NCBI GenBank assembly: GCA_943846675.1
Contig: OX044357.1
Span: forward strand, 1,408,500-1,472,499
Direction: 5' to 3'
DNA length: 64,000 nt
Source: an uncultured Bacteroidia bacterium
GTDB lineage: Bacteria > Bacteroidota > Bacteroidia > NS11-12g > UBA9320
The translations under genes were made by a program, and so were the position numbers. The notes beneath the pieces were generated by a model. It made no database searches, had not been told where the DNA came from, and saw only the letters and a program-made list of their open reading frames with translations. This document shows positions 60,709 through 64,000 of the stretch, piece after piece (position 1 is the stretch's first letter; every line of letters starts with the position of its first letter).

Positions 60709-61095
60709 TTATTCTGTGTCTTTGTACGTGAAAATAGCCTGGTAGCCGTCAGTACTTGCTTTAAAAGACATTGTGCTCGCACCTATGGTTTGGAAAACAT
60801 ATTTGAATCGCTGTCCATTATGTGATGAGCAACTCATAGTGTCTCCATTGTTTTGCCATGTCCAACGGCCATCTAAACCACGAGATAGGCGCAATGTTCC
60901 ATCGTTTAAGAATTCATGCTCGATGCCTCCAGCCGACGAAGTTGAAAACCAAACTTTGTCGTATAACAAGGCTTTTTCCGAGTTACTTAGTTTACCAGTG
61001 GTACCACCCGAGGTTGAAGGTGTTTCATCACCGCCACAAGCCCCAATAAAACATACGCCGAACAACAGACTTAGATATAAAGTTACTTTCTTCAT
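60709..61095 (-). CDS. Hypothetical lipoprotein
   Basis: Signal plus lipobox (FIGACGG), 128 aa. Confidence 0.4.
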   Translation of the reverse strand: MKKVTLYLSLLFGVCFIGACGGDETPSTSGGTTGKLSNSEKALLYDKVWFSTSSAGGIEHEFLNDGTLRLSRGLDGRWTWQNNGDTMSCSSHNGQRFKYVFQTIGASTMSFKASTDGYQAIFTYKDTE

Positions 61096-61161
61096 TTTTA
61101 TAAATTTTTACTGAGCCAAAATTAGCCCATGCTAGGGTGATTTCCAACCGTTTTTGAACTG

Positions 61162-62268
61162 TTAATCCACAACACTCAAAAGTTGTCCCTTATCCCAATT
61201 TTCTACCCTTGTCTTTTTGTTCTTGTGGTTGTAAACGGTCCATTTACCGTCTTTTAAACCATTGTGAAAACTGCCTTCACTTTTACCAAAAAGACGAGAG
61301 TGTCCAATAATCCAAGGGCCATGCTTTTTACCCGCTTTGTAAGATCCTGAAGACTTAGATCCATCGTTACTCGCATGCTCAATCCACTCACCCGTTTTTA
61401 GCCCATTCGAATAGTTTCCGCGCATATCGATTTTTTGATCTACCCATTTGATGTATTCACCGTCTAGTTTGCCCGCTTTATAGTGCGCTTGTTCAATTTT
61501 GTAACCGACAGGCGATGCATTGACGGGTGGTCTATACTTGATTGAAACACCATCAAGTTTACCCATTACATAAGTTTGCTCAGACAATTTGTTGTGCTTC
61601 GGATCGTAAACGATTTTTTTTCCGTGGATGAAGCCCATGTTGTATTCGGTCTCCTCACCAATAACGCCGCTTGAATGATAGATATACGAAAAACCGTGAC
61701 GAAGACCATTTACATAGTTTACTTCTTTCCGTTTGGTTTCTATTTGTGTGTAACTAACTACGGTTCCGTGTGGCTTTCCATCTTTAAAATTTCCTTCTTG
61801 TTCTTTTTTTCCGTTTGGGAACCAAATGGTTAATGGTCCGTTCTTAACACCGTCGTCATAGTTTACTTTTCGTTTGTTAATGCCACTCTTGTAGTATTCC
61901 GTAAACACGCCATCACGTTTACCATTAACATAGTTGCATACGATTTTGTCGTTACCGTTGTCGTGAAACGAATGATATGACCCATGTCTTATTCCATTTT
62001 GATACTGCACTTTTTGATCTGTGCGGCCATTAATATACCAGCTTTTGAACCAGCCATGTATTTTTCCTTCCTTCCATTCAACACGTTGCCAATTCTTTTT
62101 GTTATCGAATAGCAAAACAGACGTACCCGTATATGGCTTGCCTTGATACAGGTAGATGTCTCCCTTTTTTTCAAGTTTTTCGAAAAAGACCTTACTCTGT
62201 GCAAATACTTGAGTGCCACCCAGAGAACTAAAAACCAAAAGAGAAATCCAAAAAGACTTTAATCGCAT
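61162..62268 (-). CDS. MORN-repeat (YwqK-like) protein
   Basis: Signal peptide, then many repeats of the G-x-W/Y-x-x-Y/W-x-N-G pattern (WYINGRTDQKVQYQNGIRHG..., WFPNGKKEQEGNFKDGKPHG...). Confidence 0.6.
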   Translation of the reverse strand: MRLKSFWISLLVFSSLGGTQVFAQSKVFFEKLEKKGDIYLYQGKPYTGTSVLLFDNKKNWQRVEWKEGKIHGWFKSWYINGRTDQKVQYQNGIRHGSYHSFHDNGNDKIVCNYVNGKRDGVFTEYYKSGINKRKVNYDDGVKNGPLTIWFPNGKKEQEGNFKDGKPHGTVVSYTQIETKRKEVNYVNGLRHGFSYIYHSSGVIGEETEYNMGFIHGKKIVYDPKHNKLSEQTYVMGKLDGVSIKYRPPVNASPVGYKIEQAHYKAGKLDGEYIKWVDQKIDMRGNYSNGLKTGEWIEHASNDGSKSSGSYKAGKKHGPWIIGHSRLFGKSEGSFHNGLKDGKWTVYNHKNKKTRVENWDKGQLLSVVD

Positions 62269-62397
62269 AAGTATATATAATACGGGTTCAAAACTAAAAC
62301 TATTGTATTACTTCAAAAACTGTGCGCAATTGTTACTGTCCTATTTTGTGAATGATTCGAGGTAGAAGGGGTGAAGGATTGAGGGATAGGAGGATTG

Positions 62398-62465
62398 AAG
62401 GATAGAATGTCTGAAGGATAGAATGTCTGAAGGATAGAATGTCTGAAGGATTGAATGTCTGAATG
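62398..62465. repeat. Tandem 16-bp repeat (aggatagaatgtctga) x3 plus a degenerate fourth unit
   Basis: Read directly from the sequence. Confidence 0.85.
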
Positions 62466-62472
62466 GGTCAAT

Positions 62473-62738
62473 ATCAACGTCAGGTTATCCAGTCCTTAGT
62501 CCTGAGTCTTCCGTCTTGAGTCTATTTTCTATATTCCTAATAAACCAACTCCTGAGGCCTAGTGGCTAATTCCTGCTATTAGAATGTCTGAATGTCGGAA
62601 TGTTTGAATGAGTCATTAATCAACGTCAGGTTATCCAGTCCTTAGTCTTGAGTCTTCCGTCTTGAGTCTCTTTTCTATATTCCTAATAAACCAACTCCTG
62701 ATGCCTAGTGGCTAATTCCTGCTGTTAGAATGTCTGAA
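62473..62738. repeat. Two ~120-bp direct repeat copies (62473-62592 and 62619-62738; about 95% identical, period 146 bp)
   Basis: atcaacgtcaggttatccagtccttagtcYtgagtcttccgtcttgagtct...cctaataaaccaactcctgaKgcctagtggctaattcctgctRttagaatgtctgaa occurs twice. Confidence 0.85.
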
Positions 62739-62794
62739 GGATTGAATGATTGAATGAGTGAAGGTGGAATGAGTGAATGAGTACAATGCATTTT

Positions 62795-62875
62795 CAACTT
62801 TCAACTTTCAATTATCAATTATCAGCTATTAGCTCTCAACTATCAGCTATCAATTATCAACTATCAATTCTCTTT
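62795..62875. repeat. Degenerate short-period repeats (caattatca / ctatcag / tcaacttt units) immediately upstream of the TerC gene
   Basis: tcaactttcaactttcaattatcaattatcagctattagctctcaactatcagctatcaattatcaactatcaattc. Confidence 0.7.
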
Positions 62876-62883
62876 CAATTTAA

Positions 62884-63996
62884 ATGCGTGTATTTTTGCG
62901 CGTCTTAAAAAACCCTATGCAAATACCTTTTTTAGCGATACAGTCGAACGAGTTAATTTTCTTTTCGATCTTTATCGTTTTCATCTTGTTTGTCTTAATG
63001 CTCGATCTGGGTATTTTTTCAAAAGAGAATAAGGTAGTAACCTTCAAAGAGTCTCTAATCTGGTCTGCTATTTGGGTTGCCTGCGCCTTTGGGTTCTTCT
63101 TTTTTCTTAAGAATTATGGTCACTTCATTCATGGGTTTACCGACCTACAGCAGCTGAAATATATCATTGAGAAATTCGAACATCCGATTGAAATTGAAGG
63201 GCATACATTCGAAACACTTACTGAAGCGTACCGTAACAATCTATCCCTTGAGTTTATTACGGGATATTTTATAGAGTATGCGTTGAGCGTCGATAATATT
63301 TTTGTGATGCTGTTAATCTTTCAAACCTTTGGCGTTAAAGAGCGGTATTACAAGCGTGTATTATTCTGGGGGATTTTGGGTGCACTCGTTATGCGTTTTA
63401 CCTTTATTTTCTTAGGTGCAGCGATCATACAACAGTTTCATTGGGTGCTTTACATCTTTGGTGCATTCTTGATTTATAGTGGTGTTAAAATTTTGATTCA
63501 AGGGGATAAGGAAGAAACCATTGATGAGAAGAACCACCCGGTTGTCAAGCTGGTAAGCAAGATTTTTCCAGTTTTTCCGAGATACGTGGGGCATAATTTC
63601 TTTATCAGAAAAGACAAAAGGACTTGGGCTACGCCTTTGTTTATTGTGTTGATGGTGATTGAAGCGTCAGACTTAATCTTTGCCGTCGACTCGGTTCCAG
63701 CCATTTTTGTAGTAACTAAAGATCCATACGTCGTTTTCTTTTCAAACATCTTTGCGATTATGGGACTGAGGTCGATGTTCTTTTTACTCGCCAATGTGGT
63801 ACACTTATTTAGATTCCTAAAGTACGGGCTTGGGGTATTGTTGACGTTTATTGGCGTCAAAATGCTGTTTCATCATTATATCGTTGAGATTTTAGGCATA
63901 GACAACAAGATGTCTTTGTTAATCATAGGCATAATTTTGGGTGGAAGTATTTTGTTATCTATCGCATTTAAAGACACCTCTTCTGACGTCAGTTGA
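62884..63996 (+). CDS. TerC-family integral membrane protein (TerC/Alx-like)
   Basis: Multiple TM helices with the conserved TerC blocks EYALSVDNIFVM and EASDLIFAVDSVPAIF. Which of the N-terminal Met codons is the true start is uncertain. Confidence 0.8.
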   Translation: MRVFLRVLKNPMQIPFLAIQSNELIFFSIFIVFILFVLMLDLGIFSKENKVVTFKESLIWSAIWVACAFGFFFFLKNYGHFIHGFTDLQQLKYIIEKFEHPIEIEGHTFETLTEAYRNNLSLEFITGYFIEYALSVDNIFVMLLIFQTFGVKERYYKRVLFWGILGALVMRFTFIFLGAAIIQQFHWVLYIFGAFLIYSGVKILIQGDKEETIDEKNHPVVKLVSKIFPVFPRYVGHNFFIRKDKRTWATPLFIVLMVIEASDLIFAVDSVPAIFVVTKDPYVVFFSNIFAIMGLRSMFFLLANVVHLFRFLKYGLGVLLTFIGVKMLFHHYIVEILGIDNKMSLLIIGIILGGSILLSIAFKDTSSDVS

Positions 63997-64000
63997 TAAT

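Follow-up and report, generated by a model that had tools for sequence, protein, structure and literature searches.

What is the tract of short repeats that lies in front of a terC gene in an uncultured marine Bacteroidia bacterium, and does it serve that gene? Both lie in a window of 64,000 nucleotides (C1:1408500-1472499), which is the whole stretch analysed here, in the closed 3.07-Mb chromosome of the genome under study (G000; 39.8% G+C). Positions without the prefix C1 are those of the window. The tract covers ~520 bases (62357-62880) between terC and a divergently transcribed gene on its left. An earlier note on this DNA had described the region as repeat-dense and non-coding, and had offered small RNAs, binding-site arrays or a satellite-like element as explanations. 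We assign a probability of about 0.7 to the reading that the tract is one copy of a non-coding mosaic repeat family restricted to the genus, without a dedicated role for terC. The satellite-like option of the earlier note fits this reading.

A dispersed mosaic repeat family

Arrays were called in the whole genome with regular expressions for at least three consecutive units, and block-shuffled sequence served as the control. Three unit types were used: the octamer GAAKGNNN (O), the heptamer AGTCYTK (S) and the heptamer TCARYTW (H). The genome contained 60 O, 28 S and 63 H arrays, compared to 2, 0 and 0 in the shuffled sequence. They clustered into 69 composite loci with a total length of 8.4 kb. 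In all loci with several modules but one, the order on one strand was O, S, H, often in the form (O-core)n followed by H. The grammar of a tract is a G-rich O array, then one or more unique cores of ~50-120 nt with AGTCYTK heptamers, and finally a G-free H array.

Two types of core were found. Type-A cores, the type present in the window, occurred in 6 copies at 4 loci (nhmmer). The 146-bp unit in front of terC has diverged copies at other loci of the genome and is not confined to this spacer. Type-B cores occurred in 17 copies at ~12 loci and share a ~50-nt consensus around AGTCCTGCGTCC...AGTCAAAA. Core copies within one locus were 94-100% identical, and type-A copies at different loci were 72-77% identical. 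Hence, the duplication within loci is recent and the dispersal is older. Type-B copies at three distant loci, hundreds of kb apart, were 94-100% identical in some cases.

The arrays are strongly asymmetric in strand composition. In O arrays, G makes up 36% of the bases and C 3.6%; TGA is found in every frame in 43 of the 60, and the complement is free of stop codons in 57 of 60. H arrays contain 1.9% G and 26% C; 49 of the 63 are stop-free, and the complement has stops in all frames in every one (63/63). A composite tract therefore presents all-frame stops to inward reading from either side.

All placement counts rest on a gene map from a crude caller based on open reading frames (ORFs), with 2559 genes and 92% coverage. 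Outside these crude gene calls lay 92% of the repeat bases, and the overlapping ORFs were spurious or had over-extended starts. Spurious ORFs of 81-84 aa arise from the stop-free strands of H and O arrays (sites G000:C1:1146470-1148248, 1715899-1716144 and 1992552-1992806). At the same listed sites, the stop-free array strand gives a gene for an ABC-type ATPase an over-extended 5' end.

The closest relatives by TerC (75-94% identical) were all metagenome-assembled genomes (MAGs) of uncultured Bacteroidia/Bacteroidota; their terC contigs are referred to as L026-L034. MAGs under-represent repeats, and an array that is not found in them is a lower bound unless the spacer is fully assembled between conserved flanks. 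The divergent pair of terC and the left gene was kept in the closest relatives examined. The spacer between the two genes is 648 bp here and ~140-305 bp in L028, L030, L031, L033 and L034. Overall, the orthologous terC spacers were 2-4 times shorter, with different repeats or none. L026, with a TerC identical at 94%, has the same flanks with ~4 O units and ~17 H units, but it does not have the 146-bp unit. The spacer of L028 holds a short O array and other sequence, and in those of L027 and L029 there is a short O-like run that is inversely oriented. The terC spacers of more distant congeners had no such arrays. The tract is thus not conserved in close relatives, one of the findings that, according to the earlier note, would count against its suggestion; another, that the unit is found nowhere else, is contradicted by the copies described above.

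Three short-read MAG contigs (L026, L027 and L029) end 187-210 bp upstream of terC, in or beside the repeat-bearing spacer, which in these relatives has related repeat runs of low complexity. Because contigs end there, the tracts appear to break assemblies and hence to be under-counted in MAGs.

The same turnover was seen at other loci. The 889-bp tract at C1:1259579 corresponds to a spacer of 25 nt in the closest species and of 122-148 bp in two others. At the position of the tract C1:1999784, the closest species has ~130 bp, two more have 45-140 bp and another congener has 314 bp with a type-A-like core. In six environmental contigs (99.8-100% identical) and one mosaic contig, which together covered five tract loci other than terC, no indels were found. 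The change is therefore visible between species and not between near-identical strains, and strain-level hypervariability was rejected for these five loci. An environmental contig (L129) was 94.3% identical to C1:1712691-1720497 overall, and 99.75% identical and free of indels across 1.2 kb with a tRNA gene and two tracts. From this pattern, the surroundings of that tRNA would be a mosaic in which conserved segments alternate with exchanged ones.

Of the 10 congeners, 5 carry O arrays of four units; in 55 genomes from the other genera of the family, such arrays are virtually lacking. O arrays of five units were found in 4 of 300 other Bacteroidota genomes, in each case as a single monotonous array, or a pair of them, built from another unit. 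Type-B cores occurred in three congeners. H-type arrays are rarer in the genus and sporadic outside of it (11 of 150 other Bacteroidia). Some of these arrays, and H-type arrays in a congener too, are mixed with TCAGTTA, the complement of TAACTGA. The genus carrying the family consists of uncultured marine Bacteroidia. A phage origin was also considered and rejected, as the core pattern was absent from viral contigs.

The spacer upstream of terC

The tract begins with a proximal O array on the plus strand (62357-62472; unit GAAKGNNN), recognised by the repeat search and by periods of 8, 16 and 32 in Tandem Repeats Finder (TRF); it fits the genome-wide O family. The earlier note had seen a threefold 16-bp tandem here. 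This unit exists, but in 4.2 copies at 98% (62396-62463, TRF score 129), and it is embedded in a longer array with a period of 8 bp (62365-62470).

Two copies of the 146-bp unit follow on the plus strand. Copy 1 (62473-62618) is a type-A core with a linker, AGTCYTK heptamers (62498-62523) and a unique spacer, and then a short O array (62582-62610). Copy 2 (62619-62759) has its AGTCYTK heptamers at 62644-62669. When aligned (62473-62613 against 62619-62759), the copies are 94% identical and 146 bp apart from start to start (TRF period 146, 2.2 copies, score 557). The duplicated element of the earlier note is therefore real, but its length is 141-146 bp and not ~120 bp. A distal O array of the GAATGAGT type (62728-62782, plus strand; TRF periods 8 and 23) leads to the H array of TCAAYTW units (62794-62880, plus strand; TRF period 7, 10.6 copies). 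This is the run of degenerate repeats that had been placed at the terC start with a period of 8-9 bp; the run is there, and its period is 7. The top strand of the H array is poor in G and stop-free, and its complement, TARYTGA, has stops in all frames. Within 62280-62883, the longest ORFs have 54 and 43 aa, which agrees with the earlier statement that this non-coding region holds no ORF of 60 aa or more.

The spacer contains only two matches to TAnnTTTG, one per divergent gene, and none inside the tract. We take both to be promoters, as they fit the Bacteroidota -7 promoter consensus. Upstream of terC, an alignment of 10 relatives showed an invariant TA.TTTTGC 17-21 nt before the ATG (62891-62899 in the window). 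Here, the box TATTTTTG (62891-62898), the sole TAnnTTTG on the plus strand of the spacer, lies 18 nt before the ATG at 62917. The seven aligned upstream regions of the left gene share an invariant block on the minus strand, TAGTTTTG (62289-62296), 20 nt before the start of that gene. Both are putative -7 boxes, judged from sequence and conservation. They set the right and left limits of the free spacer.

The left neighbour (61162-62268, minus strand) encodes a repeat protein without a Pfam match at E<=0.001. The terC coding sequence on the plus strand (Pfam PF03741, E=4.9e-51) probably extends from 62917 to 63996, since the relatives begin to align at 62917, at residue 1. The leader would then measure ~15 nt. 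The longest terC ORF starts at the ATG 62884, which the H array abuts and which the earlier note had used as the start; the box at 62891-62898 falls inside this extension. As the relatives align from 62917 and an invariant box lies within the extension, 62884 is probably an over-call of 11 codons, 33 nt upstream of the true start.

Because the boxes flank the tract, the whole tract is upstream of both core promoters and in the only unconstrained part of the spacer. Among the copies in the genome, the one at terC is atypical: it lies between two gene starts, fills the gap between the promoter boxes and touches neither. A special role for terC, as considered earlier, is unlikely given this position upstream of the conserved core promoter and the lack of conservation in congeners. 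Most likely, to judge from the position of the boxes, the tract has no dedicated regulatory role for terC and lies outside the leader of its mRNA.

Many phased short units stand beside two promoters, and no more than 10 nt separate the H array from the -7 box of terC. The units could be an array of binding sites through which a nucleoid protein or a regulator acts on terC, the divergent gene or both. We regard this as very unlikely. The same units recur at 69 unrelated loci, most of which are 3' ends of genes and not close to promoters; in congeners, the boxes are conserved and the arrays are not, and no candidate binding protein was identified. Phase variation of terC through the number of units is unlikely as well: the H array keeps its period up to a fixed 3' end, and a change in unit number would leave -33 unaltered. 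Nor does the tract have the placement of a contingency locus, in an ORF or between promoter elements, as it lies upstream of both -7 boxes and outside of ORFs.

Genes of the terC family in other phyla often carry yybP-ykoY leaders. This context is the sole argument for a cis-regulatory RNA (an Mn2+ or other riboswitch) or small-RNA genes in the 146-bp units. The earlier note had not been able to recognise the yybP-ykoY motif, and the Rfam scans, made with 4227 models, gave the same answer. In 61000-64000 nothing matched at E<=10, a tRNA was the sole match across the entire window, and the terC loci of 8 relatives gave no match at E<=1. RF00080 did not match anywhere in the genome, whereas E. 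coli, B. subtilis and other control genomes did match.

Fold energies were compared with dinucleotide shuffles. On the plus strand, the whole tract folded no better than the shuffles (z=+0.26), and on the minus strand it was significantly less folded (z=+3.43). Eight sub-regions showed no excess of structure (z from -0.47 to +1.59), and RNAalifold found no consensus structure in 17 aligned type-B cores on either strand. In the segment that had been described as internally complementary, the heptamer AGTCYTK is repeated directly (62498-62523 and 62644-62669), and this does not fold in excess. An apparent complementarity of GAAGGATT with the AGTCCTT units, noticed by eye, forms no stable helices.

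The earlier suggestion of small RNAs thus finds no support in z-scores of -0.47 to +3.43, in the cores or in promoter boxes, of which the tract contains none. The tract is not conserved, and with the conserved -7 box 18 nt ahead of the ATG, there is no space for a leader. With yybP-ykoY (RF00080), the locus shares the genomic context only, a region upstream of a TerC-family gene, but it differs in having no covariance-model match and an inferred leader of only ~15 nt. The reading as a riboswitch or small RNA is extremely improbable and close to refuted.

Gene ends and stop codons

The tracts show a preference for the ends of convergent genes. Convergent spacers make up 16% of all spacers and 26 of the 60 that bear a tract (p=5e-7 by number and 3e-6 by length), and tracts often fill them from stop to stop. 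A stop codon was faced by 88 of the 138 tract ends, and 34 of these 88 were within 20 nt of the stop or overlapped it. Among the ends that faced a start, 6 of 50 were within 20 nt of it. If an end was no more than 40 nt from the facing stop, the stop-rich strand was shown to that gene in 34 of 38 cases (p=6e-7). In loci with a single array type, this orientation rule held in 18 of 22 cases (p=0.004), and the gene abutting the array transcribes the G-rich strand.

In ~15 tracts, the array and the stop codon of the adjacent gene overlap. At C1:1999740-1999790 (L108), the TGA of the first octamer is itself the stop codon that ends an upstream lumazine-synthase-like gene.

This placement could mean that the tract is a functional gene-boundary element, i.e. 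a two-way stop for gene expression. RNA read inwards would first carry three-frame stops, from O or from the complement of H, and then a C-rich, G-poor, unstructured and untranslated stretch of the kind that loads Rho. Such an element would end both transcripts between convergent genes, and at the window locus it would insulate the promoters of terC and the left gene from stray upstream transcription. The extreme strand asymmetry of O and H with all-frame stops agrees with this, as do the 34:4 orientation, the enrichment in convergent spacers and the minus-strand RNA of the window tract, which is less folded than shuffles. Rho is encoded in the genome. Moreover, no intrinsic terminator was detected in 19 of the 26 convergent spacers with a tract, though such spacers are 5x longer than tract-free ones.

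Several observations point the other way. Intrinsic terminators were found in 7 of 26 tract-bearing (27%) and in 107 of 262 tract-free convergent spacers (41%), and this difference is not significant (p=0.21). Substitution for terminators was therefore rejected as an explanation: terminators are somewhat rarer beside tracts, but not significantly. In single-array loci, the strand read by the abutting gene is G-rich and C-poor, the reverse of a Rho-loading site. In co-directional spacers, composite tracts had no orientation preference (5 same as transcription, 9 opposite), and the H-only arrays showed a weak trend (11 same, 5 opposite). Finally, tracts are missing at orthologous sites of congeners, so the neighbouring genes manage without them. 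Overall, we consider a boundary function unlikely.

A fuller version is at least as improbable. It makes O-core-H a purpose-built, orientation-independent boundary element that combines a ribosome stop with a Rho-loading terminator or insulator, is spread by gene conversion between arrays and, at terC, keeps the two divergent promoters from affecting each other, in bacteria without Shine-Dalgarno-guided translation. If the orientation rule did reflect function rather than tolerance, it would speak for an unrecognised way of marking gene ends.

The orientation of the tracts was also viewed along the chromosome. By cumulative GC skew, the origin lies near 3.01 Mb and the terminus near 1.61 Mb. 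Nearly all tracts with O or S arrays on the left replichore share one orientation (~15 to 2), in which the G-rich strand runs opposite to the local skew. Those on the right replichore are not biased in this way (~9 to 7). Between 0.07 and 0.74 Mb, only one tract is present.

Spread of the tracts and known repeats

A passive origin of the family would combine several processes. The arrays may lengthen and shorten by replication slippage. Unequal recombination between the O arrays on either side of each unit may have produced the 146-bp duplication. Entire core segments would spread between loci by some copy process, and the arrays may serve as shared homology arms for ectopic gene conversion. 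Tracts would then persist where they are least harmful, mostly flush with the stops of convergent genes and in the orientation that halts translation at once. The terC tract fills the only free space between two divergent core promoters, widening the gap from ~140-300 bp to 648 bp. A placement at convergent ends with stop codons provided is what tolerance predicts, and MacGregor has already made the same tolerance argument for the placement of repeats (PMC4679880).

Instead of passive spread, O-core-H could be a non-autonomous mobile element, moved by an enzyme encoded elsewhere in the style of a miniature inverted-repeat transposable element (MITE) or of a repetitive extragenic palindrome (REP) with its REP-associated tyrosine transposase (RAYT), and oriented to gene 3' ends. 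The closest species offers a clean 'empty site' for the 0.9-kb tract, the 94-100% identity of cores at three distant loci speaks for recent copying, and both the internal polarity and the orientation to stop codons are fixed. The tract ends, however, have no terminal inverted repeats; they are ragged arrays of variable length and not defined termini. No target-site duplication was found at the one junction compared between filled and empty sites, a weak test because of the diverged flanks. For these reasons, the MITE model was rejected. The REP/RAYT model was rejected too, as there is neither a hairpin-forming palindromic unit nor a Y1/RAYT transposase (PF01797) in G000 or in G005, the other repeat-rich congener; matches to PF01797 were found in congeners without arrays. 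Moreover, no copies were found in viral contigs. Mobility of this kind therefore seems quite unlikely.

A 1-kb repeat beside two tract loci was considered as a repeat-associated enzyme and rejected: it is a segmental duplication with a gene for a small secreted protein. The 958-bp segment (C1:1100448-1101405 and 2840165-2841122, 98% identity; third copy 84%) encodes this secreted protein, which has ~190 aa, and part of the adjoining repeat tract is included in each copy.

The reading as a passive, lineage-specific repeat has its own difficulties, and the following points weigh against it. The ~50-nt cores are 85-98% identical at distant loci, and together with the strict polar order this is a higher degree of organisation than slippage alone would give; there must be a copying mechanism or selection behind the cores and their order. 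Arrays that begin 4-40 nt beyond the stop follow the orientation rule too, and for them tolerance of translation is no obvious explanation. The 19 of 26 convergent spacers without a recognisable intrinsic terminator leave room for a role in termination, with p=0.21 for the comparison. As near-identical environmental contigs showed no length polymorphism, slippage would be slow on the time-scale of near-identical strains, and it is deduced rather than observed. Finally, gene positions come from the crude ORF caller only.

On balance, the tract is best read as a lineage-specific mosaic simple-repeat element of the class that comprises long simple sequence repeats (LSSRs), short tandemly repeated repetitive (STRR) sequences and TAACTGA repeats. 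For terC, the outcome is negative: this lineage has no Mn2+ riboswitch, a conserved promoter box is probably followed by no more than a very short leader, and the repeat DNA is most likely a passenger. More generally, the dispersed 7-8-nt repeats of Bacteroidota are poorly understood, and this family is a clearly defined case among them: it has ~69 loci with modules in a fixed order and two types of core, prefers convergent ends and follows a 34:4 orientation rule. There is also a practical cost. The tracts appear to break short-read assemblies, and the open strands of the arrays yield spurious ORFs and over-extended gene starts.

The REP sequences and bacterial interspersed mosaic elements (BIMEs) of enterobacteria are mosaic extragenic elements in which a few motif types are joined in set combinations at tens to hundreds of loci, typically after 3' ends. 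The tracts resemble them in being mosaic, in their set motif combinations, in the many loci and in the link to gene 3' ends. Unlike REP/BIME, they have no palindromic unit or hairpin and no RAYT-type transposase in the genome, and their blocks are tandem direct repeats.

STRR heptamers were reportedly described in cyanobacteria by Mazel et al. in 1990. With STRR and LSSR, the tracts have in common that they are dispersed, non-coding arrays of 7-8-nt units, lineage-specific and scattered, for which slippage is proposed and no function demonstrated. They differ in the fixed polar order of three unit families and the non-repetitive cores, and also in the strong enrichment at convergent ends and the stop-codon orientation rule. 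LSSRs (Mrazek et al. 2007), as summarised in PMC4679880, are long simple sequence repeats with units of 5-11 nt. The arrays described here consist of tandem units in this range beyond chance; they are intergenic, and their periods (7 and 8) are not multiples of three. They include a TARYTGA-type heptamer, provide all-frame stops in one orientation, show no RNA structure and have a sporadic, lineage-specific distribution.

The closest resemblance in unit and setting is to the TAACTGA class, whose heptamers and mixed 'assemblages of heptamer repeats' were described by MacGregor in 2015 from Beggiatoaceae, cyanobacteria and a few Bacteroidetes (PMC4679880). The few Bacteroidetes carry long intergenic assemblages of mixed heptamers with all-frame stops one way and no predicted structure, and relatives of the heptamer-bearing genomes have shorter, repeat-free spacers (PMC4679880). 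The family described here likewise has intergenic tandem heptamers, the H unit TCARYTW being the complement of TARYTGA. Again, one orientation has stops in three frames and the other is open, no RNA structure is predicted, the phylogenetic distribution is sporadic and the spacers of close relatives are shorter and lack these repeats. In contrast to the TAACTGA class, the unit TAACTGA itself is rare in this genome. Most tracts here abut the stops of convergent genes, whereas the repeats of Beggiatoaceae lie just upstream of start codons. Furthermore, the heptamers here are one module of an ordered composite, together with genus-specific octamers and unique cores.

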